Source: Chiloscyllium plagiosum (Eukaryota). Taken from it: 49,006 nucleotides of DNA. Numbering within the stretch: the stretch's first letter is position 1; every line of letters starts with the position of its first letter. The position numbers and the translations under genes are program-made. Below, piece after piece: positions 720-49,006 of the stretch. The stretch covers positions 5,701,643 to 5,750,648 of the forward strand of contig NC_057719.1 of assembly GCF_004010195.1 (NCBI RefSeq), written 5' to 3'. The notes below the pieces were generated by a model. That model was not told where the DNA came from and searched no databases. It worked only from the letters and a program-made list of their open reading frames with translations.

Positions 720-1198
720 TACACTTGATAATTTTTTATGATCCCTTTACCTTAATTAGTTTGTCCAGTTTTGGATTACTTGGATACTCTTAGCATGCAA
801 CTCTGATACCTATCATGTTATTCCAGCCATTAGGGTTGTTTCATGCACCACCTTATTTTTAATTATTTTGGAATTATCTATCTGCCTCAAATAATCAGAT
901 TACTGGCCATACCTTCACCAGCTGTTCACCTGTTTACACTTTACTCACACCATCTGACACTTTTGATCACCTACAGAGACTTATTATTCAGCCTATTGAC
1001 ACTCCACTCACACCATTTGTACAATCTTTTGGTCTCTCTGCCTACACTTCATGTGCCTGTGTGCTTCCCTTCACTTAACCTGATGAAGGGGCAGCGCTCC
1101 GAAAGCTTGTGATTTCAAATAAACCTGTTGGACTATCACCTGGTGTCAGGTGACTTCTGACCTTGTCCACCCCAGTCCAACACTGGCACCTGCACACC
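720..1198 (+). mobile_element. Penelope-like element 3' pLTR (family B) with hammerhead motif at about 1077-1111
   Basis: CTGATGA-A-GGGGC-AGC-GCTCC-GAAA-GC-TT followed by aataaacctgttggactatcacctggtgt, shared with copies at 12880, 14200 and 27005. Confidence 0.75.
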
Positions 1199-1224
1199 AT
1201 GAAAGATATACTAGCACGGAAGCA

Positions 1225-1596
1225 AATGTAGATTTCACTCGTTTCCTCATTTTCCCCTATCCCCATCTTATTCCAGTTCAACCTTCCAACTCAGCACCAT
1301 CTTCATGACCTGTCCATCTTTCTTCCCATCTGTCAGCTCCACCTTCCCCTTTGACCTATCATCTTTACCCCCATCCCCATCTACCTATCACACTCTCAGC
1401 TACCTTACCCCCAGCCCCACCCCCTCCCATTTATCTCATCAACCCCTCGGCTCACAGCCTCATTCCGGATGAAGGGCTTTTGCCCGAGACGTTGATTCTC
1501 CTGGCTCCTCAGATGCTGCCTGACCTGCTGTGCTTTTCCAGCAACACTCTAATGTAGACTCTGATTTCCATCATCTGCAGTCCTCACTTTCGCCTA
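1225..1596 (+). mobile_element. Penelope-like element 3' pLTR (family A), degenerate HHR
   Basis: ccggatgaagggcttttgcccgagacgttga, then gatgctgcctgacctgctgtgcttttccagc...catctgcagtcctcactttc. Confidence 0.75.
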
Positions 1597-1639
1597 GAAT
1601 TGGGGGCAGAGAAAGTTATTAGATTAATACAGATATGAA

Positions 1640-2090
1640 TAGATTTTCTTCCGAAGAGAGGTTGAGTATGTTGAGCCTGTATTCATTGGAAATTAGAAGA
1701 ATCAGAAGAGATTTTGAGAAATATATGAGAAATTTAGGGGCTTGACGAGGTAGATGCAGAGAATCTGTTTCTCCTTGTGGGAGAATAAAGGCACTGATGG
1801 AATAGTCTCAGATTAAGGGATTGCACATTTAAGACAGAGATGGTAAGGAATTCCCTCTCTCAGAAGGTTAACAATCTGTGGAATTCTTTACCACGGAGGG
1901 CTGTCAAGGCTGGGTCATTAAATATATTCAAGGCTGAGACAGACTTTTAATCAGTAAGGGGATCAAGGGTAATGGGGCTAAGACAGGAAAGCGTTGATGA
2001 TTATCAGGTCAGCCATAATCTCATAGAATGGTAGAGCAATCTTGGTGCACTGAATGGTCTATTTCTGCTCCTGTGTCTTATAGTCTTATT
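1640..2090 (+). mobile_element. CR1-group LINE 3' end, degraded (related fragment at about 590-720)
   Basis: Remnant of the RT C-terminus (NSLSQKVNNLWNSLP) and tail tctgctcctgtgtcttatagtcttat. Confidence 0.65.
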
Positions 2091-2484
2091 ATGCTTATCC
2101 ATCTCACACAGGCCTTCATATCCTGGATCCACAAATCTACCTACAGACTACAAAACGACAATCAAGGAACCAATTCACCGATCCCAAGTTGCAGAGATTG
2201 GACTGAAATTATTAACTACGATAGGTTGTGCGTAAAGTGTGATGAAAGCCACATTGTCTCTTTCTGCATTTAATGGAAGGGTCTATGGCCACATGAAGGA
2301 CAAGCAAAGACAAGGGCAAATAGCTAAAACCTACATTTCTGTAGTGGTTTTCAAGGTCTCAGGACAATGTCATAATGTATGAATGTAACAGCCAATTTGT
2401 GAATGGTAAGATCCCACAAACGAGAGTAAAGTGAATGATCATCTGATTTCAATGACTTTTCTTTGTCATTCACTGACAGATCTA

Positions 2485-2700
2485 TGAGGAGAAAGTGAGG
2501 TCTGCAGATGCTGGAGATCAGAGCTGGAAATGTGTTGCTGGAAAAGCGCAGCAGGTCAGGCAGCATCCAGGGAACAGGAGAATCGACGTTTCGGGCATAA
2601 GCCCTTCTTCAGGAAGAAGGGCTTATGCCCGAAACGTCGATTCTCCTGTTCCCTGGATGCTGCCTGACCTGCTGCGCTTTTCCAGCAACACATTTCCAGC
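2485..2700. mobile_element. Fold-back Penelope-derived mini-element (family A) with 13-bp target duplication
   Basis: Near-perfect inverted arms centred at about 2612. ACTGACAGATCTA at 2472-2484 and 2701-2713. Confidence 0.9.
2581..2615 (-). ncRNA. Minimal type-I hammerhead ribozyme motif (intact core)
   Basis: Minus strand: ttc-CUGAAGA-A-GGGC-UUAU-GCCC-GAAA-CG-UC^GAUU. Confidence 0.8.
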
Positions 2701-4679
2701 ACTGACAGATCTAGCCAGGATCATTCCGGAATGTGAAGATACTACTGGCTTCTTTCCTCCGCTCCCTCACTCCAGATTGTCTTTTTGAACATTTCTCCCT
2801 TGCCCTCTTCACCAATAGCAATCTAGTGAATTTATCAACAACTTGGACTAAAATGCTGATGACGTTATATATTTAATAGAAACCCATCTGGTTCAAAATG
2901 TCCTTTGGGGAACAAAATCTACTATCCTTGCATGAGCTGGCCTACCTGTGACTCCGGGCTACACAAATCACAGACCCTCTGAAATAGCCAAACAAAGCAC
3001 ACAGATGTGTCAAAACTGCGACAGGAAACCTGAAGAAGAACAGACAGAACCCCATTAATTGACCTGTGCACAAGGAATGACAAGACACACCCTCTTCTGG
3101 TGCCAAACTTGGGTAATCTGAGTCACAGGCTCGTCAAGCCTGAAAAGTCATACTCATGGAATCGTACCTTACAACGTCCCATCACCACGATCACCATCCC
3201 TGGGTATGTCCTGTCCTAATGGCAAGGCCGATCCACAAAACCTGCAACACCGTGGAATGGATTCAAGAGGAATTTACCCTAGGAGTCCCCAGTATTGACT
3301 CTGGACCCCATGAAGTCTCATGGTATCAGTCATACGTAGGCAATGAAATCTGCTGTTTCCTCCCCTTGGCTGACCAGTCCTTGTACTTCCCGATATTTGG
3401 AAAAAAGCACAGAGGCTGACAAGGGCCACAGAATGTACTCTGGGTGGGGGATCTCAATGTCCACCATCATGAGGAGCTTGGCAGCACCACTCCTGACTGA
3501 GGTGATCAAATCCAGCTGGACTGGATTTGCAGCAGATGGTGAGGGAACCAACAAGAGGGAAAAACAGAATTGAATTTATTGTCACGTATACCGAGGCACA
3601 GTGAAAAGCTTTGTCTTGCGAGCAATACAGGCAGATCATAGAGTTAAATAGCACAGAGAAGTAAATAATAGGTAAACAACGGCAAAAACAGGCGAATGCT
3701 AAGAGTTTGAGTGTCCATTCAGTATCTAACAACAGTCGGGTAGAAACTGTTACAAAACCGGCTGGTGCATGTGTTCAGGCTTCTGTACCTTCTCCCCAAT
3801 GGTAGAGGGTGTAGAAAAACATTGCCAGGGTGGGATGGATCTTTGAGAATGCTGGCGGTCTTTCCTTGACAGCGGGTCTGGTAGATGGATTCTATAGGTG
3901 GGCCTTTGTAATTGTCTGGGCCAAGTTCACCTCTCTCTGTAACTGTCTCTGATCTTGAATGGTACAGTTGCCACACCAGGGAGTGATACATCCAGACAGA
4001 ATGCTCTCGATGACGCACCTATAAAAGTTGGCGAGGGTATTCGCCGTCATGCTAAATTCCCTCAGCTGCCTGAGGAACAGGAGACGTTGTTGGGCCTTTG
4101 TAACCAGTGCATCCACATGAAGAGTCCAAGAAAGCTCATTGTGGATGACCACTCCCAGGAGCTTGACACTCTCCACTCATTCCACCTCTGTGCTGTTAAT
4201 GTGTAGGGGGTATGAGTAACATCCCGCTGAAAGTCAGTAATGAGTCCCTTGGTTTTGCCAGCATTGAGAGCTAGGTTGTTCTCAGTGCACCATTTTCCCA
4301 GGTCTTCCACCTCCCGTCTGTAGTCTGTTTCGTCAGCATCTGAGATTTGACTGACTATGGTGGTGTCCTCAGCGAACTTGTAAATGGCATTAGTCTGGTT
4401 TTGGCGACACAGTCATGGGTATACAGTGAGTACAGTAGGGGGTTGAGTACACACCCCTGGGGGCTCCAGTATTGAGCGTTAGTGACGATGAAACATTGTG
4501 GCCTGTGGGTTAGGAAACTGAGCATCCATTTGCAGAGAGTGGGGCTTAGTCCAAAATCACTAAGTTTCGTAATCAGTCTCCAGGGGATAATAGTGTTGAA
4601 GACTGAACTGTAGTCAATGAGTAGGATTCTTACGTAGCTGTTCTTGGTGTCAAGATGTTCTTGGGAGGAGTGAAGGGCA

Positions 4680-6109: not shown

Positions 6110-6248
6110 CTGAAGAAGTCCTGAAGAAGGGCATATGCCCGAAACGTCGATTCTCCTGTTCCCTGGATGCTGCCTGACCTGCTGCGCTTTTCCAGCAACA
6201 CATTTCCAGCTCTGATCTCCAGCATCTGCAGACCTCACTTTCTCCTCC
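6110..6248 (+). mobile_element. Solo family-A pLTR inserted into Rex1, intact HHR at about 6117-6152, 14-bp TSD
   Basis: CAGTAGGATGGATA at 6096-6109 and 6249-6262. Motif aguc-CUGAAGA-A-GGGC-AUAU-GCCC-GAAA-CG-UC^GAUU. Confidence 0.9.
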
Positions 6249-7174: not shown

Positions 7175-8378
7175 CTTAAGGATTTACATGTATTTGGAAA
7201 GGCAAGGACTGATTAGGGATAGTCAACATGGCTTTGTGCATGGGAAATCATGTCTTACAAACTTGGTTGAGTTTTTTGAAGAAGTAACATAGAGGATTGA
7301 TGAGGGCAAAGTGGTGGATGTGATCTACATGGACTTCAGTAAGGCATTCGACATGGTTCTGCATGGTACACTGGTTAGCAAGGTTAAATCACATGGCATA
7401 CAGGGAGATCTAGCCATTTGGATACAGAAGTGGCTCAAAGGTAGGAGACAAAGGGTTGCTTTTCAGACTGGAGGCCTGTGACCAACGGTGTTCCACAAGG
7501 AATGGTGCTGGGTCCACTGCTTTTTGTCATTTATATAAATGATTTGGATGTGAACATAGGAGGTATGGTTAGTATATTTGGTGGTGTAGTGGACAGCAAA
7601 AAAGGTTACCTTAGAGAACAACGGGACCTTGGGCTGAAGAGGGACAGATGGAGTTTAATTTAGATAAATGTGAGGTGCTGAAATTTGGAAAGGCAAATAA
7701 GGCAGGACTTATACACTTAATGGTAACGTCCCTGGAGTGCAGGTTCATAGCTCCTTGAAAGTGGAATCTCAGGTAGACAGGATAGTGAAGAAGGTGTTTG
7801 GTATACTTGCCTTTCTTGTTCAGTGCATTGAATATAGGAGTTGGGAGGTCATGTACATGAAATTGGTTAGGTCACTTTTGGAATACTAGGTGCAGTCCCT
7901 GCAGTAGAAAGGATGTCGTGAAACTTGAAAAGGTGCAGAAAAGATTTACAAGAATGTTGCCAGGGTTGGAGGGTTTGAGCTATAGGGAGAGGCTGAATAA
8001 ACTGGGGCTTTTTTTCCCTGGAGCATTGGAGGCTGAAGGGTGACCTTAAAGAGGTTTGTAAAATCACGAGGGGCATCGATAGAGTGAATAGCCAAAGTCT
8101 TTTCCCTGGTATGGGGAGTTCAAAACTAGAGGGAATAGGTTTAAGGTGAGAGCTGGAAATGTGTTGCTGGAAAGGCGCAGCAGGTCAGGCAGCATCCAGG
8201 GAACAGGAGAATCAACGTTTCAGGCATAAGCCCTTCTTCAGGAATGAGGAAAGTTTGTCCAGCAGGCTAAGATTAGGTGAGAGGGGAAAGATTGAAAAGA
8301 GACCTAAGGATAAACGTTTTCACATAGAGGGTGGTGTGTGTATGGAATGAGCTGCCCGAGGAAGTGGTGGAGGCTGCA
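7175..8378 (+). mobile_element. CR1/HER1-like LINE RT region, interrupted at 8153-8274 by a family-A pLTR
   Basis: [55 protein letters not shown]. The insert is flanked by AGGTGAGAG at 8144-8152 and 8275-8283. Confidence 0.88.
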
Positions 8379-10553: not shown

Positions 10554-10950
10554 TCCAGCAGAAACAGCTACACTTGACTGGCAAGTCAACTACCATCTCC
10601 ACATTCACTCCCTCTGCCAATGCACAATAGCAGCACTGTAAACCATCTACAAGGCTGAACCACACCTTTTTGAATTGCTGTAGTCCAAGACACAGTGAGG
10701 GAGGAAGTTTTGGAATGTTGCCACAGCAGCTACCATTTGAGGCTGCTGCAATTTGGTAGGTGTGCCACTGGAGGGGGTTGGTGTGTCCACTTGTTCTTTC
10801 CTGGAATAGTCATGTTGTGATTATAATATTTCAGTTAATGCTGCAATTCAGTGCACTGACTGTGGGATAGAGCTGCACTTAGAACATAGAACAGTACAGC
10901 ACAGTACAGGGCCTTTGGCCCGCAATGTTGTTCCAACCTTTCATTATAGA

Positions 10951-11162
10951 GGAGAAAGTGAGGACTGCATATGCTGGAGATCAGAGCTGAAAATGTGTTG
11001 CTGGAAAAGTGCAGCAGGTCAGGCAGCATCCAGGGAACAGGAGAATCGACGTTTCGGGCATAAGCCCTTCTTCAGGAATCAGGGCTTATGCCCGAAACGT
11101 CGATTCTCCTGTTCCTTGGATGCTGCCTGACCTGCTGCGCTTTTCCAGCAACACATTTTCAG
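10951..11162. mobile_element. Fold-back family-A Penelope mini-element inserted in a CR1 3' end (10881-11280), 13-bp TSD
   Basis: Inverted arms centred at about 11078. CTTTCATTATAGA at 10938-10950 and 11163-11175. Intact minus-strand HHR at about 11044-11079. Confidence 0.9.
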
Positions 11163-11742
11163 CTTTCATTATAGACCAAACTAACCAACATACCCTTCAT
11201 TTTACTGTCACCCATGTGCCTATCCAAGAGTCGCTTAAATGTCCCTAATGTGTCCGACTCTACCAGCACCACTGGCAGTTCAGATGACCTGCTAAAAGGG
11301 ATAATGATGCTGCATTTTTATTATGGAAATGGAAAGTACTGGAGGAACCCAGCAGATTTTTATTTATCAATTATGAATTCATTGGATGTAGGCCTGGCTG
11401 ACTGGGCCACCTTTTACTGTCTACACCAAGCTGCCTGTGAGAAGGTGGTGGTGAGCTGTCTTCTTGAACTGCTGCAGTCCCTGTAGGTTGTCCCACAATG
11501 CTCTTCAGCAGGGAATTCCTGAAATTTGTCCCAATGACACTGAAGGAACACCAATATATTTGCACGTCAGGATGGTATTCAGTTTGGAAGGGATTTTGGT
11601 GATGTTACTTAGAGATATGGGCAGACACCCTCAGCCTGAAAATACTCCCAAGTGATATCTCAAGTAGCAATATTGACTTAAAACATGAGGTGAAGCTGAT
11701 ACAAAGCAAACTTGTTCTATTCAGCAATTCCTTTCTTTGAAG

Positions 11743-12560: not shown

Positions 12561-12784
12561 TTAAGAATGTAGTTTGCCACTTCATTCACCTGCATGGCAC
12601 TGCTTTCATTTGGATTACTCAGTATGGGTTGAACCTGTTGTCCTGTTTCATTGGAAATCAGCAGGTTCCCCAAGTCATCACCGAAATTGGTTTTGAAAAT
12701 AACTATACAATTTATTTGATTTCCAAACACAGGTTGATAGACAGCACATACCACATTTATTTATTTAACAAGACTACGAGGAAT

Positions 12785-12880
12785 TAGAGTCGAGAGTGTG
12801 GTGCTGGAAAAGTACAGCAGGTCAGGCAGCATCCGAGGAGCAGGAGAATCGACATTTCGGGCAAAAGCCCTTCTTCAGGA
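12785..12880 (-). mobile_element. Family-A pLTR fragment fused to the 3' end of a family-B Penelope
   Basis: gtgtggtgctggaaaagtacagcagg...gcccttcttcaggaat joins directly to cacacaacacc. Confidence 0.8.
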
Positions 12881-14068
12881 ATCACACAACACCAGTTATA
12901 GTCCAACAGGTTTAATTGGAAGCACACTAGTTTTCGGAGCACCGCTCCTTCATCAGGTGGTTGTGGGGGACACAATTGTAAGGCACAGAATTTATAGCAA
13001 AAGTTTAGTGTGATGAAACTGAAATTATACATTGAAAAATACCTTGATTGTCTGTTGAGTCTTTCATCTGTTCGAATACCATGTTAATTTCACTTCTTTC
13101 ATGTCTAAATCACAAAACCTTTTTGTAAAAGTTGCATTCTCAGGTTAGCTGTAACAATTGGTGATAGCTAGATCTCTGTCTGTGCCGTGATGTTTAGATT
13201 GATACTAATCTAAAGAGTGAGATAACAGAGTTTTACATGAATTCATGCAGTTTTTGAGCAAAGTACAATGTAACTCTGCAAGTACAAATTCACCCCACAA
13301 AATATATGTGTGCATGTGGGTCTTTGTGTCTATGTGTGTGTGTGTGTGTCTGTCTGGGTTGGGGGTTGTGAGTGTGAGAGAGAGTGTATATGTGTGTGTA
13401 GTGAGTTTGTAGAGTGTCTTAAGTCTGTGAGAGGATGCCTGTGTGAGTGTGGGAGTGTGTGTGTCTGTGTCTGTGTGCGCGTCTGTGTGTATGTGTATAT
13501 AGTGCAATGGCAGTCACCTGTAGTGTGACATGAACCCAAGGTCCCGGTTGAGGCCCTCCCTATGGGTACAGAACTTAGCTATCAGCCTCTGCTCGGCCAC
13601 TTTTCGCTGCTGCCTGTCCCGAAGGTCGCCTTGGAGGATGGTCACCTGAAGGTCCAAGGTCGAATGTCCTGCACCACTGATGTGTTCCCCAACTGGGAGG
13701 GAACCCTCCTGTCTGTTGATTGTTGTGCAGTGCACATTCATCCGTTGCCAAAGCCTTTGCTCTGTTTCCCCAATGTACCATGCCTCCAGGCATCCTTGCC
13801 TGCAACATATAAGGTAGACAACATTGACTGAGTCACATGAGTACCTGCCACGTACATTGTGGGAGGTGTCCCCAAGTGTAATGGTGGTATCCATGTCCAC
13901 ACTCTGACACATCTTGCAGCGCCTACCGTGACAGGGTTGTATGGCGTTGTCCTGAGAGTCGGGCAGCTTGCTACGAACAATGATTTGTTTGAGGTTTGGC
14001 GGTTGTTTAAAGGCAAGTAGTGGAGGTGTGGGGAAGGTCTTGACATTGTGTGATTTTTAACTTTGTAC
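12879..14068 (-). mobile_element. Penelope-like element (family B): GIY-YIG endonuclease C-terminus, (CA)n-rich UTR, HHR, short inverted end
   Basis: ORF 13514-13912 NVVYLICCRQGCLEAWYIGETEQRLWQRMN..EQRLIAKF..GLN. HHR at 12925-12959. Inverted ttgtgtgatttttaactttgtac at about 14046-14068. Confidence 0.9.
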
Positions 14069-14199: not shown

Positions 14200-14376
14200 C
14201 GGAGATGCTGGTATTGGACTGGGGTGTACAAAGTTAAAAATCACACAACACCAGGTTATAGTCCAACAGGTTTAATTGGAAGCACAATCACCTGATGAAG
14301 GAGCGTCGCTCCGAAAGCTAGTGCTTCCAATTAAACCTGTTGGACTATAACCTGGTGTTGTGTGATTTTTAACTTT
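14200..14376. mobile_element. Fold-back family-B Penelope mini-element upstream of TTC7B
   Basis: Inverted arms at about 14230-14285 and 14321-14376. Flanks CTTTAGAACATT (14185) and CTTTAGAAGATT (14373). Confidence 0.88.
14289..14323 (+). ncRNA. Minimal type-I hammerhead ribozyme motif (intact)
   Basis: cac-CUGAUGA-A-GGAGC-GUC-GCUCC-GAAA-GC-UA^gug. Stem I cac/gug, 5-bp stem II. Confidence 0.82.
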
Positions 14377-14390
14377 AGAAGATTGGTGTG

Positions 14391-14911: not shown

Positions 14912-15032
14912 ATGGCCGCTAAGAAGTTGGGCACTCGGTTGGAGATTGAGATTGAGCGCTGTCGGAATGAATGTCTGTGGGAAAAGATCCCGGAGCTCGT
15001 TAAACAACTGTCGGCCAAGCTCATCGGGAACG
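14912..15032 (+). CDS. TTC7B: Tetratricopeptide repeat protein 7B, coding exon 1 (121 bp)
   Basis: ATG at 14912 encodes MAAKKLGTRLEIEIERCRNECLWEKIPELVKQLSAKLIGN, which matches the vertebrate TTC7B N-terminus (MATKKAGSRLETEIERCRSECQWERIPELVKQLSAKLIAN). Donor G|GTAAG at 15032/15033, phase 1. GC/CpG-rich context. Confidence 0.95.
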
Positions 15033-16680: not shown

Positions 16681-17284
16681 GTCTCCTGGTTGCTTTGGGA
16701 GAGGACACGGCTGTCTTACTGGTCAATAAATTTGAAGGATCTTGTGGAAACACGGCTGTTGGCACTTGTCCAATGGTTTGAGTGTCTACTATATATTTGG
16801 GGGGTGGAGGAAGTTGGTGGTTGGTTTTCCTGTGGGAACTGGTTGGAAGTGGACTTCAGGTTTTTCTGGGAGTTTAGTGAAAGATTCACCTTCTCGTATG
16901 TTTCAGAGGAGTTGCCGATGACCTGGAGCTCGAGTCAGCACACAAGAATATCATCTGTATCAAAATCAGAAACTGCGAGAGCAATTCCGCAGGTCTGGCA
17001 CTGGACTTGAAACATTAATTCTCATTTCCACAGAGACTGCCAGACCAGCTCAGTTTCTCCAGCAGTATTGGTTTTTGTTTCAGATTTCCAGCATCCACAG
17101 TTCTTTATTCTATTTAGCGTCATCTGCACTTTGGGTGTGGTCTTCAAATTATCTTGGGTAAATCTACTGTCTTCTCTCAATACTGCTCTGATTGAGAGAC
17201 TTCAATTTACTCTGTGTCTGTGACTGGCCGTAGTGTCATATTGTGTCATGTGTGTGGGTTATTGGACTCTAGTCCTTCACCCTG

Positions 17285-17550
17285 AGTCGAGAGTGATTTG
17301 CTGGAAAAGCACAGCAGGTCAGACAGCATCTGAGGAGCAGGAAAATCGATGTTTCGGGCTAGAGCCCTTCATCAGGAATGAGGCAGGGAGCCTCCAGGAT
17401 GGATGGTGCTGAGCTGGAAGGTTGGAACTGGGGTAAGGTGGGGGGAGGGGAAATGAGGAAACTGGTGAAACCCATATTGATGCCCTGGGGTTGAAGGGCC
17501 CTGAGGCGTAAGATGAGGTGTTGTTCCTCCAGGCGTCGGGTGGATGATGA
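17285..17550 (-). mobile_element. Family-A Penelope 3' end (GIY-YIG C-terminus + pLTR), HHR at about 17344-17379
   Basis: RRLEEQHLILRLRALQPQGINMGF. Minus strand CUGAUGA-A-GGGC-UCUA-GCCC-GAAA-CA-UC. Confidence 0.85.
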
Positions 17551-18052
17551 AGTGGTACTGCATAAATGATGCATTGTGTGTGAATGGGGAACTGATGTGG
17601 CAGGCTCCCTTGGTGGGAGTCATGGATAAACTCAAACCTGCTCGTGATTCCCAACAAAATCTGACTCCCAATTGTCTAGGAACCCCTTTGCCATTGGACC
17701 AAAGCCCCAGTTTAGTTGATGGAGTGGGGTGTCAACCCATGGTGATCTAATTCTGAGGCGTGTGTGACTCAGCCAAAAATGCTGTGTTGGGATTGCTTGC
17801 TCTTGTCAGAAGAGATTGTGTACATCTTCTGTATCTCTGTCAGAGTCAACATTGAAGGAGAATGCCAGTGTTTAAAATCAAATCGACAGAATAAGGGACT
17901 CTCAGCCTCACAAACACATCAGTAACTGCAATTTGGGAAGTATTTAATTTTCTGTGAGGTGCTTTAGACATCCTAAGAACTTGAAAGGCGGTAGAGAACA
18001 GTAAGTTTGTTTTTCCTTTCTGTAAGATTCTGTCACCTCTGTTCTCTCTCAG

Positions 18053-19474: not shown

Positions 19475-19790
19475 CAAAAACAGAAATTGCTGGCCAAACT
19501 CAGCAGGCCAGGTAGCTTCTGTGGGAAGGGCTTATGCCCGAAATGTCGATTCTCCTGTTCCCTGGATGCTGCCTGACCTGCTGTGCTTTTCCAGCAACAC
19601 ATTTTCAGCTCTAGCTTCTGTGGGAAGAAAGCAAAGTTAACCTTTCTAGTCCAGTATCTCTTCATCAGATTTATCAGTCACTGGATGAAACATTAACTCT
19701 GCTTTCTTCCCACAGAAGCTGCCACATCTAGTGGGTTTCGTCAGCATTTTCTGGTTTTGTTCCAGATCTCTTGCATTTGAAGTTCTTGTT
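19475..19790. mobile_element. Older fold-back pLTR element with a family-A fragment (19529-19611) nested inside, 16-bp TSD
   Basis: TAGCTTCTGTGGGAAG at 19513-19528 and 19612-19627. Host arms cttctgtgggaagaaagca / tgctttcttcccacagaag. Confidence 0.8.
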
Positions 19791-25070: not shown

Positions 25071-27004
25071 CCATGATCCAGCACCATTTTTGAGTTACGA
25101 AAGGAATAAAAAGAAATTACATAAATAGAGATTGTCTTTCTTGTAAGGAGTATTCAAATACATCTCCAGGGATTCTGCAAGGTCTCTCCTCAAGAAGTCC
25201 CCACTCCAGGTGCGGCAGTGAAGACCCTGACAGGAATCGACGCTTCAGGCCTGCCGCAGGCATTGTCACCACTGCAGCCAAAGGCCGGCCAAGTTGATAC
25301 TCCAGGCCTACCGCAGCCAGGAGCCCTCATTTCGGGCATAGCCGCAGGTGCTGACTCGCTGAGTCCATGCTCTGGGTCTGATGCAGCGAGGAGTCCCCAC
25401 TCCGTGCATCATCACTGCTGTAGCTGATGACCTGCCAAGTCCCGTCCACGATCCAGGCCTATTGCAGCCAGGAATCCTCGCTCTTGGCACAGCCACTAAC
25501 TGCAACTGATGCCCTGCCGAAACTGCTCTGGCTTCTCCCAGGTATCAGAAGATGAAGGATAAAAAAGAAAGGGGAAAGGAGAAAGTGAGAGAAGGCTGTG
25601 GCTAGTTGGAACAGATGGGCTAGGAGCCTGAACACAACCTCCTGTGCTGGCACCGTCATCTTGAATTGCCAACCGTGATGCTATTCTAAACCAATCTCAT
25701 CTGTCTGCACATGCTCCATATCCCTTTATTCTCTATCTGTTCATGTGTCAGTCTAAATGCCCCTTAAACTTTGCTATTGTAAGTACCTCTATGACCTCCC
25801 CCAGCAGTGGGTTAAAAGCCCCTACTACCGTCTTTAAAAAATAAACTTTCCTCGTAAGTCGTCTTTAAATTTTCCTCCTCCCACCTTAAACCTGGGTTTG
25901 ACATTTCCGCCCGGGAAAGAGACTCTGACAATCCACCAATCCACCCTATCTGTGCCCTTCATAATTTTTATACGCTTCTGTCAGGTTACCCCATCAGCCT
26001 CTGAGGCTCTAGCGGAAATAATGTATGTTCGTCTAATCTCTCCTTAAAGCTGATTGTCCTATTGTCACTGTAATCTTGGACAGTAAGGATAATCAAGAGA
26101 GCATTTGGATTTGTTGTTGGACGGGAGCGAGGAGAGGTGGCTGGTAAGTCTGCTTTGGTCTGGAGAGAATAAGATGTCTTTAGTTATGGGGGAGAGTATA
26201 TCTGAAAATTGGGCACTGTTCCATTTAGAATTATACTTTGCAAAAGGCCAACTGTGATTGTGTAGACTCTTCAAGGATTTATCCAATCAACTTATACAAA
26301 TGTAAGGTACTCTCAGACTATCTGAAAATGACTATTACAACTGACCTCCACTAGACTCATATTTGTAATAATGACACAGATAAACCCTGAATTCTTTCCT
26401 GAAACCATTATGTTTGGCTATGCTTCATAAAACCGACCTCTGCTGTTCTAATATCCATTCGAGCAGCTTGGTGTCAAATTTTGTCCAAATTATGTTCCTG
26501 TGGAGAGGATATTCAAAACCACATTAAATTGAGTGGCTTTAGAGAAGAACTTTCCTTCTCTTGATCATTCTTGAGATTTTGTCTCAGCCAACATTTATTG
26601 CCTGAACTAAATTGTCTCTGAGAAGGTGATGGTGAGCTGTCTCCTTGAATTGCTGCAGTCCCTGTCATTAAGAACACCCACACTGCCATTTTGGAGTGAG
26701 TTCCAGGATTTTGATCTTGTGACAGTTAATGGTAATATGCTTCTGATTCAGCATGTTTTGGCTCGTGGTAGGGAATTTGCAGAGTGGTGATCCATTTATT
26801 TGCTGCCCTTGTTGTAGGTGGTAAGCGGTAATAGGTTTGGAAGGTGCTATTGAAGAGGCTTTGGTGAGTTGCTGCAGTGCATCTTGTAAATGGCATAGAT
26901 TGCTACAGTGTCGGTGTTAGAGGGAGAGTGAATGTTTGGGGATGTGGTGTACTCAAGAGTACACCACATCCTGGATGATATTGATTTTCATGAGAGTTAT
27001 GACT

Positions 27005-27645
27005 TGCAGGTGCCAATGTTGGACTGGGGTGGACAAAATTAAAAATCACACAATACCAAGTTATAGTCCACCAAGTTTATTTGGAAGCACTAGCTTTCAG
27101 AGCACTGCTCCTTCATCAGGTGTTTGTGGGGGTTAAGATCATGCTCACAGAATTTATAGCCAAAGGAGTCCAGTGTTATGGAGATGTGATACAGGAAACA
27201 ATCTGAGATTAAAACTTACATCTTTTAGAATGGGGTATGCTGATTTCTGTTCTTTGATATGTACTTCCCAGAACTTCTTTTAAATTACATTCCCAAGATA
27301 GCTCAGCTTTTTAAACAACAGGTGTGAAGTCTGTCTGTGTTCCAATGCGATGTCAGACTGACAAACCCTCACAGTTTTACAGTTTCACATGGATTCATGC
27401 AGTTCTTGAGCAAAATTAAATGTATTTCTGCCAAAAACAAATTCACCCCATAAGCTTATACGTGTGCTCATGTAGGAGCGACAGATTGAGCGTGCATGTG
27501 GGTGTGAGTGCACATGATATATGTGTGTGTGTAAGCTTGGTTAAGTGTGTCTGAATGTGTGATGGGATATGTGTGAGAGGATGCATGTGTCTGTGTGAGT
27601 GCGGGGCTGTGTGTGTGTGCACGAGAGCTTGTGTGTGAGTGAGGG
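27005..27645 (-). mobile_element. Family-B Penelope pLTR with HHR at 27088-27122 and a TG-rich tract
   Basis: Minus strand cac-CUGAUGA-A-GGAGC-AGU-GCUCU-GAAA-GC-UA^gug. Homologous to 12880-13500. Confidence 0.85.
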
Positions 27646-30600
27646 GTCCCCCCGCACTGCACCACACTGCAATAAAATATAGGTTTCCTTTAATATTTAG
27701 ATTTAGGTTATAGTGCCATTGAAAGGGCTATCACTAGTCAATTTATCTTGATTTGTTCTTTAAAAAGAATGAAAAAACAGTATAATCAACTATGATTGAG
27801 TTAGGAAGTCTGTGTTTGTAATGTTTCCTTTTGTAAATAAATACCAGTCTGAGTAAGTGTTGTCTCCTGTATCATTCCTTCCCATCTGGCTTTCTGGAAT
27901 TTATTTCAGATGGAGGATCATGATATTCTCTCCCTCCATCACTAGCATGCAGGGTTATATACCATCTACAAAATGGACTGCAGAAACTTGTCAAGGTTGT
28001 TTTGACATTGTCATCCAAATCTGTGATCTATGACCTTCAAAGACAAGGTCACCAGACTGATGGGGACACCAGTTCCTCACCTCGCACATCATCCTAACTT
28101 CAAACTGTGTTTTCATTTCTTTGCTATTGCTGAGTCAAAAATATGAAACCCATGCCCTTGTTGCCCTGTGGGGCATCCACACCATTTGGGCTACGATGCT
28201 TCAAAGAAGCCACTCAAATCCACCTTCTCGAGCAATTAGGGATGGATGTTATGTTAGTCTAGCCAGCAATGCTCACCATACGAACAAATAAAGAAAATAA
28301 TAAACTGTATCACAAGGCTGTTGTGGCCAATACTGCTGAGATGGAAGCTGAGGAACGTGGTTTGAGTCGGTGAATTTCAAGTGTGCGGCTTCATCTTGCC
28401 TGACCATGCTTGATATCGATACTTGATCCCTTAAAGTCTAAGGTGCCTCATTCTTCAACAGTCACATCTCTCTGTTCTGATCTCCGCTCCATAGGAATAT
28501 GGATAATACAAAGGACAATGAAAATTGTCGCTCTCCCATGCTAGCATGTATATTCTTGTAAGGCTTGCTGCTATTTGTCACAAGAATAGATGATGTGTTA
28601 TTTATTGCATTATTTTGATCCCAGCTAATACTGGGCAAGTTAAACCCCGGAATGAATCTGAATTGGCAGATTAGCTCCAAAACACAGCAACAGAAATTGC
28701 TGGAGAGGCTCAGCTGGTCTTGTGACATCGCTGGAGAGAAAACAATTCATGTTTCAGTTCAGAGACCCTTCTTCAGAATTAAATATTTGGATAGCTGATA
28801 GATTCGTTGGTCACCATGATGGTTTATTACTGAAGCGTAGTCACATGAGGTTGCAGGTGTCCTTCAACAACAGAATGCAAACTTCTTACACTTTTTAAAA
28901 AAAAAATCTATTTATGCGACAGTTGAAATACAATAGCAGAAGGGAATGTCAACTTAATGCCAGAGAAATATCACTTCTATCTCAGCTTATTAATTCTTCC
29001 ATTAACTGAATTCTCAGCTTACTTTCATAGGATTGTCGATACCATTTTATAAATCTTTTTGGAGACCATTGGCATGAACTTTTCATAATTTTAACTTAAA
29101 ATTTTTCAGTTTTTCAAGAACTTGATCTGTACAAATTTCTAGCTTGGAAGCTTCAGGGAGATGCTTGATTTCCCTGAATTGAAGGCTTGATTCTCTGGCT
29201 GGGAGAAAACTTCTCCTTACTGAACTAATTACCTTGGTTCTGTTAGCAGTTCAGCAGAATAAATATTCAATTTATTTAATATTTCAGCTTTCCTATCAGA
29301 CACTCGACTGAGCTCCCATGCCTTCTCAGAAACAGTGAAGTTGGGATACTGTTCCAAATGACTTTCTGAACTTCTTAGAAAAAAATGTTCACAGAATTAA
29401 TCGCAATTCATCTCCTCTATTTTAAAAACCACACCGTAAATTATGATTGATATAAGACATACACCTTTTATGACAGCATTATTTATTTTTAGAATATTCG
29501 CTGAGGTGTTGTGGCTGCTTTTCTGATATTTTACCAGAAGAGGGCATCTGAGTACATATGACTGCATTGAGATTATCTTCAAAGCGAGTTCAGTGTTAAT
29601 TGCATAGTCTAAGCATGGTCTTAAATCCTGTGTGTGTTCGCGTACACAAGATTTAACCTACAATCAACATCAATAATTTATCTGTCATTGTTTTTCATTC
29701 AGTTCAGAAAATAAAGGGATAATAGAGACCTTTAGCTTACAGATTAGAACTGGTTAACATATTACTCAGAGTTTGAATAGTTATGGTACTGGAGTATTAA
29801 CCTAGAGATTGAGGGTTCACATGCCACCCATTGGCAAGTGGAATTTAACTTGACTGTAAGCAATAATTGCTTGATTGTTCACTGATGCTCTTCAGGGAAG
29901 GAAATGTGGCTCTTGCATAATCTAGACCGATGTGTGACTCCAAACCCCTCATTATATACTTCACACTTATTGCCCTTTGGTTTACCCCATCACCACTGTT
30001 CCTGAGCATTTTCAAATAGAGAATAAATTCACAGCCATCTCAAGTTTGATGAGATAGTATGGGAAGGGATGGCATATGTATTACATCTTAGATAGAATTA
30101 CTGAAGAGTTCTGACAGCTGAGGCTGGTGATGTAATTTTATGATATCAATATGAATTTGTTTAGAAATTATTGGATCCTTTGTGTCATGAGTGAAAATGT
30201 TATTAGAAAAAAGAATCTATGATAACAGAAATTAAAACACAAAATGCTGGAGAAACTCATCAGATCCAGCAGCATCTATGTGCAGAGAAACAGTTGACAT
30301 TTTGAGTCCATTGTGACTCATCTTCAGAAAATTGATTCTGTTCTTGTGTCCACATATTTTGCCAGATCTGAGATTTTCCATTTTAAATTTTTATTTCCAA
30401 TTTCCAGTACCTGTGGTATTTTACCTTTTTTATGAAAGATCTTATAGCTAATCATTCACAAATACTGCTTATTCCTTACCCTTCATACTGGTGCATCTTA
30501 TACATTTTGCTTGTTCCACTTGCAGCCATTTAAAGTTTTCCAGCTTGCCATTTCTTACCTCCACATTTTCAAGCCTGCTGGAAAACAACTGCTACTTGGT

Positions 30601-31061: not shown

Positions 31062-31800
31062 AACATGTGGCGCCGGAAAAGCACATCATGTCAGGCAGCA
31101 TCTGAGGAGCAGGAGATTCAATGTTTCGGGCATAAGCCCTTCATCAGGAATGTGGGGAAGGGGGCTGACTGATAAATAGGGTGGGGGTGAGGTAGCTGAG
31201 AAGGTGATAGGTAGATGCAGATGGGGGGTGATGGTGATAGGTTGGAGCAGAGAGTGGAGTGGATAAGTGAGAAGGAAGATGGACAGGTAAGACAGTTCAA
31301 GAGGGCGGTGCCGAGCTGGATCTGGGATGAGGTAGGGGGAGGGGGGCGGGGTGGATGAGGAAACTGGTGAAATCAATGTTGATGTCGTTTGGTTGGAGGG
31401 TCCCAAGGCGGAACCACTTCAACTCCCCCTCTCCCACTCCGCCAATGATATGCAAGTCCTGGGCTGCGTCTACTACCAAATGCCTTCTTCCTCCAGGTGT
31501 TGGGTGACTTGCATTTGGTAGTAGACGCAGCCCAGGACTTGCATATCATTGGCGGAGAGGGGTAGTTGAAGTGGTTCCGCCTTGGGACCCTCCCACCCGA
31601 CATCCTAATTATCTCATAACCCACTCCTCTTCTCTCTCTCTCTCTCTCTCCCCCCCCCCCCCACCGCAACATTCCTGATGAAGGGCTTATGCCTGAAGCG
31701 TGACTCTCGTGCTCCTCAGATGCTGTCTGACTTGCTGTGCTTTTCCAGCACCACACTTTTCAAATGTGATCTCCAGCATCTGCAGTCCTGACTTTCTCCT
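31062..31800. mobile_element. Rearranged family-A Penelope with double inverted-repeat structure
   Basis: Outer inverted pLTRs (31062-31153 and 31670-31800) and inner inverted arms (about 31395-31482 and 31511-31593). Remnant RLGTLQPNDINIDF. Confidence 0.85.
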
Positions 31801-33914: not shown

Positions 33915-34123
33915 GGTCGAGACAGTGGTGCTAGAAAAGCACAGCAGGACAGGCAGCATCTGAGGAGCAGCAGAATCGATGTTTCGGGCATAAGCCCTTC
34001 ATCAGGAAGGGCTTACACTCGAAATGAGGATTCTCCTGCTCCTTGGATCTTGTGTGACCTGTGCTTTATCAGCATCACACTCTTGACTCTGATCTCCAGC
34101 ATCTGCAGTCCTCACTTTCTCCC
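33915..34123. mobile_element. Fold-back family-A Penelope mini-element (older)
   Basis: Inverted arms around 34005. Minus-strand HHR core at 33974-34007. Confidence 0.85.
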
Positions 34124-34459: not shown

Positions 34460-36660
34460 CAAGTAAACAGTTTTTTTGATGTTGATTGAGAGATGGATAT
34501 TTTGATAGGACACAGAGAGAACTCTGCCTGCTGTTCTTTGAACTTGTCTTGTCCTAAACAACGTGGCTGCTATATTGGTTCTGCAACAGATGATGAGGAA
34601 CCAACAAGAGAGAGAAATCTTAATCTCATCCTTCCCAACTTTCCTGCTGCTGATGCACCTATTCATGACAATATCAATAAGAGCGGCCACTGCACAGTCC
34701 TTGTGGAGATGAGGACCTGTCGTCATATTGAGAATACCCACAATTGTGTTGTGTGACATGAGCGCAATAACAGGTATGATCGACTTTGAACAGATTTAGC
34801 AACTTAAGACTGGACATCCATCAGGCACTGTGGGCTATCAATTGCAGCAGAATTGTAAATATTTTCTAATCAATCTTCTGGAGCAGATAGGACTTTAACT
34901 CAGCCAGGTAAAAACAATGACTGCAGATGCTTGAAACCAGATTCTGGATTAGTGGTGCTGGAAGAGCACAGCAGTTCAGGCAGCATCCGAGGAGCTTCGA
35001 AATCGACGTTTCGGGCAAAAGCCCTTCATCAGGAATAAAGGCAGTGAGCCTGAAGCGTGGAGAGATAAGCTTCCTGGTTCAGAGTTAGGGATATTACCAC
35101 TGGACCAGAAGTGCCCACTAGCAACAGAATTGTTCCCCAATGCAATCTGCAACCTCATGCCCTGCCCAACCATTAAAATCAAACCAAGAGATCAGCCTTG
35201 TTTCAATGAAAGTTGATGGAGGAGCACCAAACGTATAAAACAGGACTACTTACATGCCAAATAGCATTAGCAGCAACTGCTAGACAGAGCTAGCAATTCC
35301 ACACCAATGGATCAGGTCTAAACTCTGCATCCTGCACTGTCCACTTGTGAATCATGGTGAACAATAAACAGCTTAGTGGCAGAGAGAAGTCCGCAAGCAA
35401 TCCTGACCTCAGTCATTGGAAGCCCAGCACTTTAGTCCAAATGAAACATTTGAAATAATCATCAACTAGAAGTGCTGAACAGATAATCCATCTCAAACTC
35501 ATCTGGAGCTCCCAGCATCACAGATGCTAATCTTTGATTCACTCCATGTGATACCAAGAAACAGCTGGATGCACTGGATATTGTGAAATCTATATCCCTG
35601 ACAATATTCCAGCAATAGTTCTGAAGTCGTGTGCAGTAGAACTTGCCATGCCCTGAACCAAGCTGTTCCAGTATACCTACAAACACTGGCATCTACCAAG
35701 CAACAAGGAAACTTTCCCAGGTATATTCTGTACACTAAAAGCAGAAATCTATCCAGCCAGTGACCACCTCATCATTTCTACTCTTGATCATTGCAAATTG
35801 TCATCAACAGTGTTATCGGGCAGCGCTTGCTTCATAATTTCATCACTGAAGCTCAGTTTGGGTTTTGTCAATGCCACTGGGCTCGTGACCTCTGTTATAA
35901 CCATAGTTCAAACATTGAGAGAAGAGCTGAATTCTAGAGGTGTGGTGAGAGTGCCTGCCTCTAAAGTCAAGGCCACATTTGATCAAGCGTGTAATCGAGG
36001 AGCTCTAGCTAAACTGGAGTCATTGAGAATCAGAGAAAGTTGTCTGAATAACTACTGTAGCTACAAAAGCGTGTCAGAAGCTAGAAATACTGCAGCAAAT
36101 ACTGCACCTTCTGGCTCCCCAAAGTCTGTCCCCACCATTTAGAAGATATAAGTCAGGAGTGTGATAGAGTACTCCCCACTTCCCCGGATGAGTGCAGCTC
36201 CAACAGCACTCAAGAAGCTTGACTCCATCCAGATCAAAGCAGCCCACTTGATTGGTACCACATGCACAAACGTTCATTCCCTCCACCACCAGCACTCAGT
36301 AGCAGCGGTGTGTACCATGTACAAGATACACTGCAGAAATTTACCAAGGCTTCTTTGATGCACCTTCCAACGCCATGATGACTACCATTCAGCAGAATGA
36401 GGACAGTGGATAAAACACCACCTGCAAGTTCCCTTCCAAGCTTCACCATCTTGACTTGAAAATATATCACAATTCCTTAAGTGTCACTGGGGGAAAATCT
36501 TGGAACTCCCTAACAGCATCATGGGTGTACATATATCAAATGGGCTACAGTGATCCAAGATGGCACCTTCTTGAACCCCACTTTGATGAGCAGTCAGAGA
36601 CGGGCGATAAATACTGGCCCAGACAGTGATGATGACTTCCCATGAATGAATAAAAATAAA
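34460..36660 (+). mobile_element. Long degraded CR1/Jockey-group LINE
   Basis: VRSVIEYSPLPRMSAAPTALKKLDSIQIKAAHLIG..HSLHHQHSVAAVCTMYKIH. Ends in tgaatgaataaaaa. Confidence 0.7.
34900..35070 (-). mobile_element. Family-A-related pLTR with intact HHR at 35001-35036
   Basis: Minus strand auuc-CUGAUGA-A-GGGC-UUUU-GCCC-GAAA-CG-UC^GAUU. Confidence 0.85.
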
Positions 36661-45725: not shown

Positions 45726-46147
45726 TTGGTGAATACCTGATGGCTGAAATGTCTTTCATTCTTTGCTATAAACCTTTAATAAAATAGTATTCCAGTTTTA
45801 AGATTTTGTGAAAGATGCGAGCAAAGTGATCAAAACTGTTGAAAAAGTCTGGTTAAACAGTGATATAAATTAGAATGAAACTTGGGGACAGTATCTCTGA
45901 TGGCTGAGATTTCGGATATTACTTCAGCCCAATGAGGTAAAAGGTTCTATGATGTTAGGCTTGTAATTAAAATGATAAAGTTTCTATTATTGTTGTTACA
46001 ACACAGGAATAGCAAACCAAATCAGCTTCATTATCATTGGATTTGCAACACAGTGAAATTAAAACATTAAATTACATTTCTGTGCATTTAAATTCATCTG
46101 CCAGACGTCTGCCCATTTGACCAATTTGTCAATGTCCCTTGGAGATA

Positions 46148-46364
46148 CTCTTACTCGATATACCTTCATCTTCCATTATTCCCATTTCACTGCTCTTACT
46201 CGATATACCTTCATCTTCCATTACTCCCATTTCACTGCTCTTACTCGATATACCTTAATACTCTATTTACCTTCATCTTCCATTACTCCCATTTCACTGC
46301 TCTTACTCGATATACCTTAATACTCTATTTACCTTAATCTTCCATTACTCCCATTTCACTGCTC
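46148..46364 (-). repeat. Inverted partial copy of the 45-bp minisatellite, followed by (TTCA)n/(TCCG)n
   Basis: ctcttactcgatataccttcatcttccatta(t/c)tcccatttcactg is the reverse complement of the unit. Confidence 0.92.
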
Positions 46365-46464
46365 ATTCATTCAATTCATTTATTCATTCATTCGTTCGTT
46401 CATCCGTCCGTCCGGCCATCCGTTCAATTCAAATTTAAACATTCAGTTACCCTTAAAGTATCGC

Positions 46465-47355
46465 CGAGGGACATTGACAAGTTGGTCAAATGGGCAGACA
46501 TCTGGCAGATGAATTTAAATGCACAGAAATGTAAGGTAATGCATTTTGTTATGGTCGAAACAGGCTCAATGGTACAACTTTGAGGGGAGTACAGGAACAG
46601 AGGGACCTAGGGTTCAAGTGCATAATTCTGTGAAGGTGGCCAGATAAGTTGAAGCTGTTATTAAGAAGGCTTGTAGGGTCCTTGGGTTTATAAGTAGAGG
46701 CATAAAATATAAAAGCATGGAAGTGATGCTACATCTCTACAGAGCATTGGTAAGACTACATTTGGAGTATTGTGTTCAGTTCTGGGCATCCTATTTAAGG
46801 AAGGGTATTAAAGCCTTGGAGAAAATTCAAAGGAGATTTGCTACAATGAGGGATTTTGAATGCAAGGTAAAATGAAGAGAAATTGGGTTCATTCTTCTTG
46901 GAGCAGAGAAGATTAAGAGATGACCTTATTGAGGTGTTAAAAATTACGATCAATTTTGACAGGGTAAAGCAGGACATTCTGTTTCCACTAGATGGTATGT
47001 CAGTAACTAGGGGTCACAATTTCAAGATTGTCAGCAAGAGAGCTAGGAATGCGATGAGAAACTTCTTTACTCAGAGTTGTTAGGATTTGGAGTGTGCTTG
47101 ATGGGAGAGTGGTGGAGGTGTATTCCACGGGAGGTTTCAAAGATATGTATTTGGAAGCGGTGAATTTAGAGGGCAAAGTTGATTGTCTCATGGACAGTGA
47201 AGAAGGTTATCTCAGAATACAAAGAAATCTTAATCAGTTGGGTCAGTGGGCTCAGGAGTGGAAGATGGAGTTTAATTTGGATAATTGTGAGATATTGCAT
47301 TTTGGTAAAACAAACAAGGGCAAGACTTGTCCAATTAATGGTAGGGCCCTGGGTA
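46465..47355 (+). mobile_element. CR1-like LINE fragments; the 5' end is mirrored in inverted orientation at about 46060-46140
   Basis: DIDKLVKWADIWQMNLNAQKCKVMHF, LYRALVRLHLEYCVQFW, LEQRRLRDDLIEVLKI. A second subfamily piece lies at 47160-47355. Confidence 0.85.
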
Positions 47356-49006
47356 GGGGGTAGTAGATGGGGTCTGACTCGATGTGTTTGTTGATAGAGT
47401 TCCAATTGGAATGCCAAGCTTCTAGGAATTCTCGTGTGTGGCTTTGTTTGGCTTGTCCTAGGATGGATGTATTGTCCTCGTCGAAGTGTTGTCCTTCCTC
47501 ATCCATATGTGAGGATACTATTGAGAGAGGGTCATGTTTTTTTATGGCTAGTTGATGTTCATGTATCCCGGTGGCTAGTTTTTTGCCTGTTTGTCCAATA
47601 TAGTTTGTTACAGTCCTTGCACGGCTACCATGATGCTAAGGGGTCTGAGTAGCCCACAAACCCACCAACACGCTATAACAGCAGCTAATTTGAATTTGAA
47701 AAACCCTATAGTGACAATAAGCAAAACTAATGTCATTTACAAAATACTGTGCAAGGACTGTAAGAAACACTACATTGGACAAACAGGCAGAAAACTAGCC
47801 ACTAGGATACATGAACACCAATTAGCCACAGAAAGATATGACCCTCTCTCACTAGTATCCACACATATGGATGAGGAAGGACACCCCTTCGACTGGGACA
47901 ACACATCCATCCTAGGACAAGCCAAACAAAGACACGCACAAGAATTCCTAGAAGCATGGCATTCCAACCAGAACTCTATCAACAAACACATTGAGTTAGA
48001 CCCCATCTACCACCCCTTGAGAAAAGGAACAGGAAATGACTTCACCACAGGAAGTGACTTCACCACAGGAAATGACATCACCAACCCAAAGAAACCCCAA
48101 ACATATAAATAGAAAGCAGGAATTGTTAGCAGTGCCTCATATGATGTCCACTGAAGATGTTACCTAGTAAGGTAACAAAATGTCTGGAAATGAACCTTGC
48201 AGCTCAGCGAGCAAACTTACATCCAAAACCTCAACCCGAGCTTCAAATCTTCTCAAAACTCGCTAAGACCTATGGGCACAATACGCTAAAAATGGCCCGA
48301 AAATGGGAAACGAATGCCATCCAACAGAGTGCCACCCGCGAACAGCTGTAATTCCTGCACAAATGCCTAAGGAAACAGGTACTATCTAAATGTCTTCAAT
48401 GCAAACCTCCCCTTAACACCCCACTAGCCACAAGAATAGTAAAGCAAAACAGCTGCAGAATGCTTAGAGAAATGATTAATGATGCCCACAATACACTCCG
48501 TAAATACAACTGGGAAATTTTGCATCAAAAATCTTTACTCAGTCATGCAACAGACCGTGAATGGACAGACACAGTACAACAAACCATAGATATTAGACAG
48601 TGACAATCACAAAAAATGAAAAAACTAGACCTGCAGTAAAAACTAGACAAACTTACACAAAGTAACAATGACAACACAGAAGCATGGATATAAAACTTAT
48701 CTGACCAACTTATCTGACCAACAGACACTGAAAAAGCCATCTTAGTAAGAGGATTAAATTACAACTGCCAGTTGCGGACAAGAAAGATTTCTTAGCTGCA
48801 TTAGACACAACACTAAAAGACAACCAACTCATAGAAGAAACCCAACAAACCATCAGACAGGTAGTCGCACCAACATTAAGCAGAAAAAAGGAAGGAGAAA
48901 CACTCAATACACAAGAAAGGAAAGCACTGGAAAGACTAAAAAAAAGAAAGAAACATTGTTATCCTCCCTGCAGACAAAGGACGCTTGACAGTCATTCTAA
49001 ATCGAA
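47355..49006 (+). mobile_element. Penelope-like element: inverted GIY-YIG copy + direct GIY-YIG/pLTR + start of the next ORF (runs off the window)
   Basis: NVIYKILCKDCKKHYIGQTGRKLATRIHEH..EFLEAWHS..SIN at about 47700-48020, with an inverted copy at 47355-47621. HHR remnant at 48148-48187. Decayed N-terminal ORF ending IVILPADKG (48961-48981), the PLE DKG motif. Confidence 0.9.

Follow-up and report, generated by a model that had tools for sequence, protein, structure and literature searches.

What leaves hammerhead ribozymes scattered through a shark genome, most of them detached from coding sequence? The question is raised by a 49,006-nucleotide stretch of the Chiloscyllium plagiosum contig NC_057719.1 (G000:C10:5701643-5750648, here the window; 47,380 called bases, in a genome of 3.56 Gb), in which such motifs occur within the pseudo-long terminal repeats (pLTRs) that Penelope-like elements (PLEs) carry. 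A reading of the sequence alone had proposed a very large ribozyme repertoire; it had missed the fixed 3' ends of the copies, the pile-up of 5' ends at the motif edge and the extra G described below, and so lacked a cause of the detachment. We consider it likely that the solo and head-to-head copies arose as run-off reverse transcripts of an RNA that is both capped and uncleaved and begins at an initiator in the pLTRs, a few bases ahead of the ribozyme core. Once inserted, the copies look dead, decaying much like their flanks, and do not look like a maintained ribozyme repertoire.

We searched the window with a strict descriptor (CUGANGA-N-stem II of at least 4 bp-GAAA-NN-UH) and found 13 matches, against a mean of 0.02 (maximum 1) over 200 dinucleotide shuffles. 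All 13 carry a one-base insertion between A9 and G10.1 together with the closing G10.1-C11.1 pair, and in 8 the stem-III tetramer is still palindromic (ACGU or AGCU). Six further motifs are decayed, with changes in core or stems. The motifs are given here by C3 of the core, from which positions within copies are also counted; the predicted cut falls after +27 in family A.

1080+, 2612-, 6121+, 8241-, 11075-, 12878-, 12956-, 14292+, 17375-, 27119-, 31147-, 34005-, 35032-: motifs matching the strict descriptor
1466+, 19668-, 28776-, 30327-, 31675+, 48151+: decayed motifs

The strict core, together with GIY-YIG frames upstream, confirms that the motifs are minimal type-I hammerheads of a known PLE kind, as the sequence-only reading had claimed. 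All 19 positions and four core-less halves that it listed are present in the sequence, its minus-strand coordinates being those of the 3' end of the motif. A looser fourteenth match, at 38212, fits no family. An Rfam scan of the window gave 10 matches, all below the gathering score and none of them a ribozyme, with no matching hammerhead model. A homology search anchored 3' of the motif recovered 25 motif-end copies in the window; they are solo or head-to-head, and the window holds no tandem arrays of the motif.

The copies belong to at least four families, A to D, as had been proposed. In majorities built by homology, stem II reads GGGC/GCCC in family A (which comprises several subfamilies), GGAGC/GCUCC in B, GUUACC/GGUGAC in C and GGGUC/GACCC in D. 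The first two pairings had been listed correctly, whereas the GUUACC/GGUAAC and GAGUC/GACUC forms given for the others came from decayed single copies. Stem I reads UC/GA, AUUC/GAAU, CAC/GUG, AGUU/AACU or CUCA/UGAG, and stem III ACGU in A and C, AGCU in B and ACAU in D. The core is intact in the family majorities, small decayed groups excepted. When the majorities were compared by inspection, stems I, II and III varied in a compensating manner between families around a constant core, which argues that the motif is under selection in active lineages. The covariation and conservation that the earlier reading looked to are present between families and absent among inserted copies. Folding gave stem II a pair probability of 0.54-1.0 and only a weak stem I, and in five copies the stem-III dimer lay 2-14 kcal/mol above the best dimer fold. 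This is consistent with the low, dimer- or protein-dependent activity reported for PLE hammerheads.

GIY-YIG-type frames lie directly upstream of motifs in families A, B and C. In family A, an 893-amino-acid frame with RVT_1 and GIY-YIG domains stops 159 nt before the motif (loci L285 and L287), and for the L287 protein the nearest named relatives come from two carpet sharks, Chiloscyllium punctatum (83%) and Rhincodon typus (70%). A cysteine linker reads CNRRRCNTC in L285 and CHGRRCKMC in the family B frame at window 13514-14056. Since a CX2-5CxxC linker between reverse transcriptase (RT) and endonuclease (EN) is a Neptune feature (PMC8557442), families A and B appear Neptune-like. For family D, no open reading frame (ORF) was tied to the motif. 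The family C frame that we saw has no cysteine linker, and we take this family to be Poseidon-like by its similarity. The family C element in the window extends beyond it, across an assembly gap, to a second motif at G000:C10:5752388, and has motifs on both sides of its gapped ORF. As a separate observation, a 26-bp piece of the family-A ORF end forms a tandem array of about 20 units at L284:2559-3148.

To describe the anatomy of the copies, we mapped 363 of them in 1.19 Mb (206 of family A, 58 of B, 37 of C and 62 of D). The mass of copies are solo or head-to-head and 100-130 bases long. They are indeed mostly detached from PLE coding sequence: only 29 of the 206 family-A copies extend at least 160 bases upstream, where the ORF ends. 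The 3' ends are two-peaked in each family. In family A, 103/206 end at +83 to +101 and 90/206 at +121 to +129, and sequence beyond +127 is unrelated from copy to copy. The tail of a PLE is bounded by two RT start sites (PMC11167929), and the two peaks match these sites. Pairs were then scored among those family-A copies that match a reference at 88% identity or more and have their start no more than 15 bases from the core. Every head-to-head pair (29/29) consists of one long and one short arm, and 23 of the 29 are flanked by a shared word of at least 9 bases, mostly 14-15. Among solo copies, a script found a shared flank word of at least 9 bases in only 7/29, more being visible by eye.

The 5' ends are also non-random. 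In family A the chance per base that a copy ends is 0.041 from +13 to -13, compared with 0.005 before this interval and 0.004-0.011 after it; at the motif it is 0.044 in family B and 0.063 in D. The pile-up in A, B and D thus amounts to about 4-18 times the rate on either side. Young A copies taken alone pile up too (0.052), showing that the effect does not come from loss of alignment. Family C has kept its hammerhead and shows no pile-up (0.008 versus 0.006-0.009), and RNA structure alone is therefore not the cause. Within family A, 51/206 copies start at -6 to -2. Starts at the cleavage site were considered and rejected, as only 5/206 fall at +26 to +30, with no peak.

A further mark lies at the 5' junction itself. 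The native family-A sequence ahead of the core is TCATTC, and many short copies read G-ATTC instead. Genome-wide, among family-A copies with an exact core, 17,595 have the native TC, 3,669 have a non-native base before CATTC and 7,497 before TTC; before ATTCC the base is G in 4,424 and A or T in 3,144 (T in 32 among the first 100 listed). G makes up 58% at -5, against 11/100 at -4 and 21/100 at -6, these neighbouring positions having been tallied by hand over the first 100 places listed, all on contig C1. None of 30 G-class family-A loci had native untranslated region (UTR) upstream, and at mirror junctions G differs from the next letter of the other arm in 8/15. The start bases in families A and B were read against initiator consensus strings. 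For family B, the initiator-like TCCACA led us to foretell, before the search, a G ahead of the A at -8. G was found in 50/61 listed copies starting at A(-8) and in 8/39 starting one base further in (Fisher p 1e-9). Contigs of other sequencing runs show the same joints with G or AG, although one run may be the genome's own source. An extra G at the 5' junctions of full-length LINE-1 (L1) elements has been read as a copied cap (PMC11702581). Separately, C is unexpectedly common before CATTCC (53/100 among places listed), perhaps as a subfamily base or a mirror-junction effect.

Could random 5' truncation produce these ends? They might gather at the motif if short near-palindromes (TTCCTGAA, ATTCC/GGAAT) favoured fold-back or microhomology joining. 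Such microhomology is used at many junctions, C and T predominate before TTCC, snap-back is documented for R2 cDNA (PMC11371274), and palindromes at inverted PLE junctions have been read as self-priming (PMC3846280). However, few ends lie at the stronger palindromes (stem II, ACGT) that RT reaches first, the same pile-up occurs in solo copies, and family B, with other upstream sequence, moves the extra G to -9. Fold-back also leaves the 29/29 long/short pairs unexplained, and a short G-bearing arm cannot yield a long, tailed arm in this way (locus L199). We consider this explanation unlikely. The shortness, very high number and uniform 3' ends of the copies would also suit a few non-autonomous masters that start with G and were amplified in the manner of short interspersed elements, and short copies may be re-mobilised. 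Yet subfamilies A1 and A2 carry the G in shares close to those among upstream-extended copies, and family B has it at another offset, which would call for several independent G-starting masters; the upstream flanks are all different. We hold this to be highly unlikely.

We further investigated how many copies the genome holds. An exact 28-base family-A pattern has 52,878 matches genome-wide and its reversed control has 0. Sampling C1-C10 at fixed mid-contig positions (forty stretches of 10 kb, 381,444 called bases), we found 25 strict matches, 24 of them in known families, giving an estimate of about 213,000 strict motifs genome-wide (Poisson range 137,000-318,000), or about 1 per 16 kb. The 93 copies of any state in this sample correspond to about 830,000 genome-wide. 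The window is about 4 times denser than the sample. The very high number expected by the sequence-only reading is thus borne out, while its density of 1 per 2.5 kb is not, and neither is the idea of a maintained repertoire. With another descriptor, about 4,000 hammerheads were reported in coelacanth and about 9,000 in Xenopus (PMC4209133).

Decay of the inserted copies was followed in families A and B. When family B loci were picked by endonuclease alone, 23/29 spanned the motif; changed cells numbered 16/230 (7.0%) in the core, 93/1,104 (8.4%) upstream and 13/552 (2.4%) downstream. In family A, G/C cells changed in 24/369 (6.5%) in the core versus 187/3,077 (6.1%) downstream, and 83 of the 125 copies spanning the core have it intact. 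A lower core change in pooled family A (4.1% versus 6.8%) was set aside, being mostly due to subfamily sites; the G/C cells are equal once these are removed. In sampled introns of nine genes, oriented by Pfam exon matches, we found no strand bias (28 sense versus 35 antisense strict motifs; 16 versus 18 intact solo copies), and the bias of the window, where 8/10 listed intronic motifs are antisense, was gone in this sample. In the poly(A) single-cell run X21, motif reads occur on both strands (1,496 and 1,000 reads), 93-95% of them continuing into unlike flanks; a second raw poly(A) run, X22, gave no such reads. No circular-RNA back-joint was found in one poly(A) run, a kind of library that would lose circles. 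A selected repertoire of active ribozymes, its solo motifs kept for cleaving host RNA or for retrozyme-like RNA propagation, would suit the very high motif number, the stems covarying between families, the motifs read within host transcripts and a weak deficit of A/T changes in family-A cores, but has very little chance of being right given family-B cores that change more than downstream sequence, G/C core cells of family A that change as fast as downstream ones, the one-third of core-spanning A copies no longer intact, the even strand counts in introns, the lack of tandem motif arrays and 5' ends that avoid the cut site.

The run-off reading can be set out as a series of steps. In families A and B, the pLTR promoter would initiate at an A lying either 4 nt before C3 (TCA+1TTC) or 8 nt before it (TCCA+1CA), and the RNA would begin at the 5' strand of stem I. 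The PLE protein would then prime reverse transcription at two internal sites, about 88 and about 127 nt after C3, from either nicked target strand. Because these sites are so near the RNA 5' end, most cDNAs would run to the cap and copy it as an extra G, or lose a few bases at joining. Priming of both target strands, one per site, would give a head-to-head long/short pair, whereas longer copies would come from read-through RNA carrying the ORF into the 3' pLTR. The inserted copies would then be dead and decaying. Cleavage at +27 would strip the short RNA of its cap or detach the ORF from the priming sites; this accords with the scarcity of ends at that position and with the use of uncleaved RNA in vitro, where it is the dominant PLE template (PMC11167929). 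As for the role of the ribozyme, trimming of read-through mRNA is one guess. Internal promoters have precedent, with an initiator (Inr) and downstream promoter element (DPE) in a Drosophila PLE pLTR (PMC2377424) and an Inr-like motif in a rotifer pLTR (PMC3846280). With somewhat less confidence, we think it probable that this layout holds for Neptune-type PLEs: the hammerhead would lie at nucleotide 5-9 of the capped transcript; each 3' pLTR would be the promoter for a template of about 130 nt, twin-primed from two fixed sites, one per target strand, through the cap; and the template in vivo would be uncleaved, with ribozyme cutting off the transposition path.

Several observations weigh against this account. 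The 5' ends are scattered over about 25 bases, and starts at -3 (7,497) are as numerous as those at -4 (7,568). The 17,595 exact-core copies extending upstream of -5 mean that read-through templates exist too. At 7/15 mirror junctions and at several solo junctions, the other arm or the target may have supplied the G. No full-length family-A element with an upstream pLTR was present among the 12 + 28 loci examined, in which long frames often crossed N gaps. No pile-up of read starts or ends was seen in X21, of which about 2% was covered and whose library is unsuited to 5' ends. A/T cells of family A changed less in the core (26/861, 3.0%) than downstream (127/2,387, 5.3%; p 0.006), perhaps owing to T-runs downstream. 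Finally, in the Penelope of D. virilis some 120 nt and an intron separate the start site from the ribozyme downstream (PMC2377424, PMC4209133), showing that the layout is not general.

If the reading proposed for Neptune-type PLEs is true, the shark insertions, hundreds of thousands in number, preserve a fossil map of where PLE transcripts start. Questions on the PLE insertion mode, on inverted copies with a one-sided tail and on the role of the ribozyme are recast as exact predictions: RNA starting with a cap at the two bases named above, priming on opposite target strands at +88 and +127, and a cleavage that would remove the cap or sever the ORF from the priming sites. Genome-wide hammerhead counts in such genomes would then measure an insertion by-product, not ribozyme function, and long pre-mRNAs hold many sense copies without visible cost.

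The copies in the window, with the one host gene, are as follows (window positions; strand; feature).

1078..1194; +; short solo copy of family B containing a strict hammerhead (1080-1108)
1225..1595; +; older family A copy that includes 3' UTR; its core, at 1466, is decayed
2485..2699; long arm - (strict motif 2612-2585), short arm +; family A head-to-head pair flanked by a 14-bp target duplication (2471, 2700)
6119..6247; +; tailed solo copy of family A bearing the strict motif 6121-6148 and flanked by a 14-bp target duplication (6096, 6249)
8149..8273; -; tailless family A copy bearing the strict motif 8241-8214
10949..11164; long arm -; family A head-to-head pair whose long arm opens with the extra G ahead of ATTC (strict motif 11075-11048), flanked by a 13-bp target duplication (10938, 11163)
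12783..12882; -; family A short copy starting G-ATTC, motif 12878-12851, adjoining the 3' end of a family B copy
12880..14056; -; family B copy carrying 3' UTR, the motif 12956-12928 and, at 13514-14056, a frame of linker/GIY-YIG type (CxxxCxxC linker)
14214..14376; unstranded; head-to-head pair of family B whose + strand bears the strict motif 14292-14320
14912..15032; +; first coding exon of a TTC7-family host gene, with exons 2 and 3 near 18049 and 20135; later hammerhead motifs are intronic
16999..17106; +; family D fragment without core, absent from the earlier list
17290..17731; -; older family A copy that includes UTR and the last part of the endonuclease frame, motif 17375-17348
19475..19777; unstranded; old family D head-to-head pair, decayed motif from 19668 on -, split by a young family A copy
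19525-19612; +; young family A copy inside the D pair, starting within the core, 16-bp target duplication
26995..27625; -; family B copy with 3' UTR, strict motif 27119-27091
28689..28778; -; short family D copy whose decayed motif starts at 28776
30226..30329; -; short family D copy whose decayed motif starts at 30327
31062..31604; -; older family A copy bearing the motif 31147-31120, with its endonuclease end folded back (31381-31604)
31670..31800; +; tailed family A copy in which the core at 31675 is decayed
33916..34122; unstranded; head-to-head pair of family A whose - strand bears the motif 34005-33978
34906..35071; -; tailed copy of subfamily A3 in family A, bearing the strict motif 35032-35005
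47252..49006; +; family C element comprising an inverted piece of the endonuclease (47252-47635), a GIY-YIG frame (47579-48112), a decayed motif (48151-48184) and the ORF start

Three of the core-less halves (2617, 11081 and 34006) are mirror arms of head-to-head insertions, while the fourth, at 19525, is a separate short copy with its own target duplication. The young family-A copies at 12783-12882 and 19525-19612 lie within, or directly beside, PLE ends of greater age (B and D), a hint that PLE ends may be favoured as targets. Elsewhere on the same contig, two family-A2 head-to-head insertions (G000:C10:5885649-5885925 and 5897833-5898052) stand 12 kb apart; about 500 bases of one flank are common to both, whereas the centre and the other flank differ, as by local duplication or transduction. 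The TTC7-family gene spans the window from 14912 onward on the + strand, to at least G000:C10:5854630, and has a paralogue on C9; it is presumably TTC7B-like, judged against the human protein. A GC-rich 39/57-bp tandem array (14391-14889) stops about 20 bases short of its start codon. A 45-bp tandem array lies at 45320-45725, with an inverted partial copy at 46148-46364. Fragments of long interspersed elements at 3567-6073 and 37185-37791 (RVT_1 and an ALKBH8_N-like C-terminal match) are 87% alike over 609 bases.

Published work already describes the ribozyme, the element that hosts it and the layout of inverted copy plus tail. In the main texts of largely open-access literature on shark hammerheads, PLE twin priming and extra G or cap, we found no account of this PLE pattern or of shark copy numbers. 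Like the minimal hammerheads of metazoan PLE pLTRs (Cervera & De la Pena 2014, PMC4209133), the shark motifs have a type-I core with an extra base at A9/G10.1 and a G10.1-C11.1 pair, a loop-less palindromic stem III and many consensus families, and occur mostly as single motifs with some opposite-strand pairs. Unlike those, they number about 2x10^5 by the strict (and different) descriptor, and stem II has only 4-6 bp. That study, whose available text does not name sharks, proposed RNA-level evolution or circles; the shark data point to neutral fossils of uncleaved RNA.

The closest likeness in mechanism is to Poseidon PAc of Anolis (Frangieh et al. 2024, PMC11167929), which has two internal RT starts bounding a 30-40-nt tail just 3' of the ribozyme, and in which, as here, both target strands are nicked and extended and insertion proceeds without need of cleavage. 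Unlike PAc, families A and B are Neptune-like (CxxxxCxxC or CxxxCxxC linker), and the accessible part of that paper makes no mention of cDNA run-off at a capped 5' end or of a long/short pairing rule. Units of EN-bearing (EN+) PLEs (Arkhipova et al. 2013, PMC3846280; Craig et al. 2021, PMC8557442) share the head-to-head arms, one-arm tail, target duplications and Inr-like pLTR motif, and their optional 30-40-nt tail, inverted 5' copy and target duplication all recur here. Their inverted copy is 5'-truncated, whereas the shark arms have 100-130 bases each and non-random 5' ends. The non-long-terminal-repeat retrozymes of animals (10.64898/2026.07.22.740005) are likewise non-coding, PLE-derived and equipped with a type-I hammerhead, but they form head-to-tail tandem units with a ribozyme in each, unlike the dispersed solo and head-to-head copies here; in the portion of that work available, one chondrichthyan was sampled, for tandem retrozymes only. 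Full-length L1 with twin priming (PMC11702581) shows the same 5' extra G, two primed target ends and discrete 12-18-bp duplications. L1 twin priming, however, copies adjacent, non-overlapping parts of the RNA, whereas here both arms are the same stretch, copied from two fixed starts.

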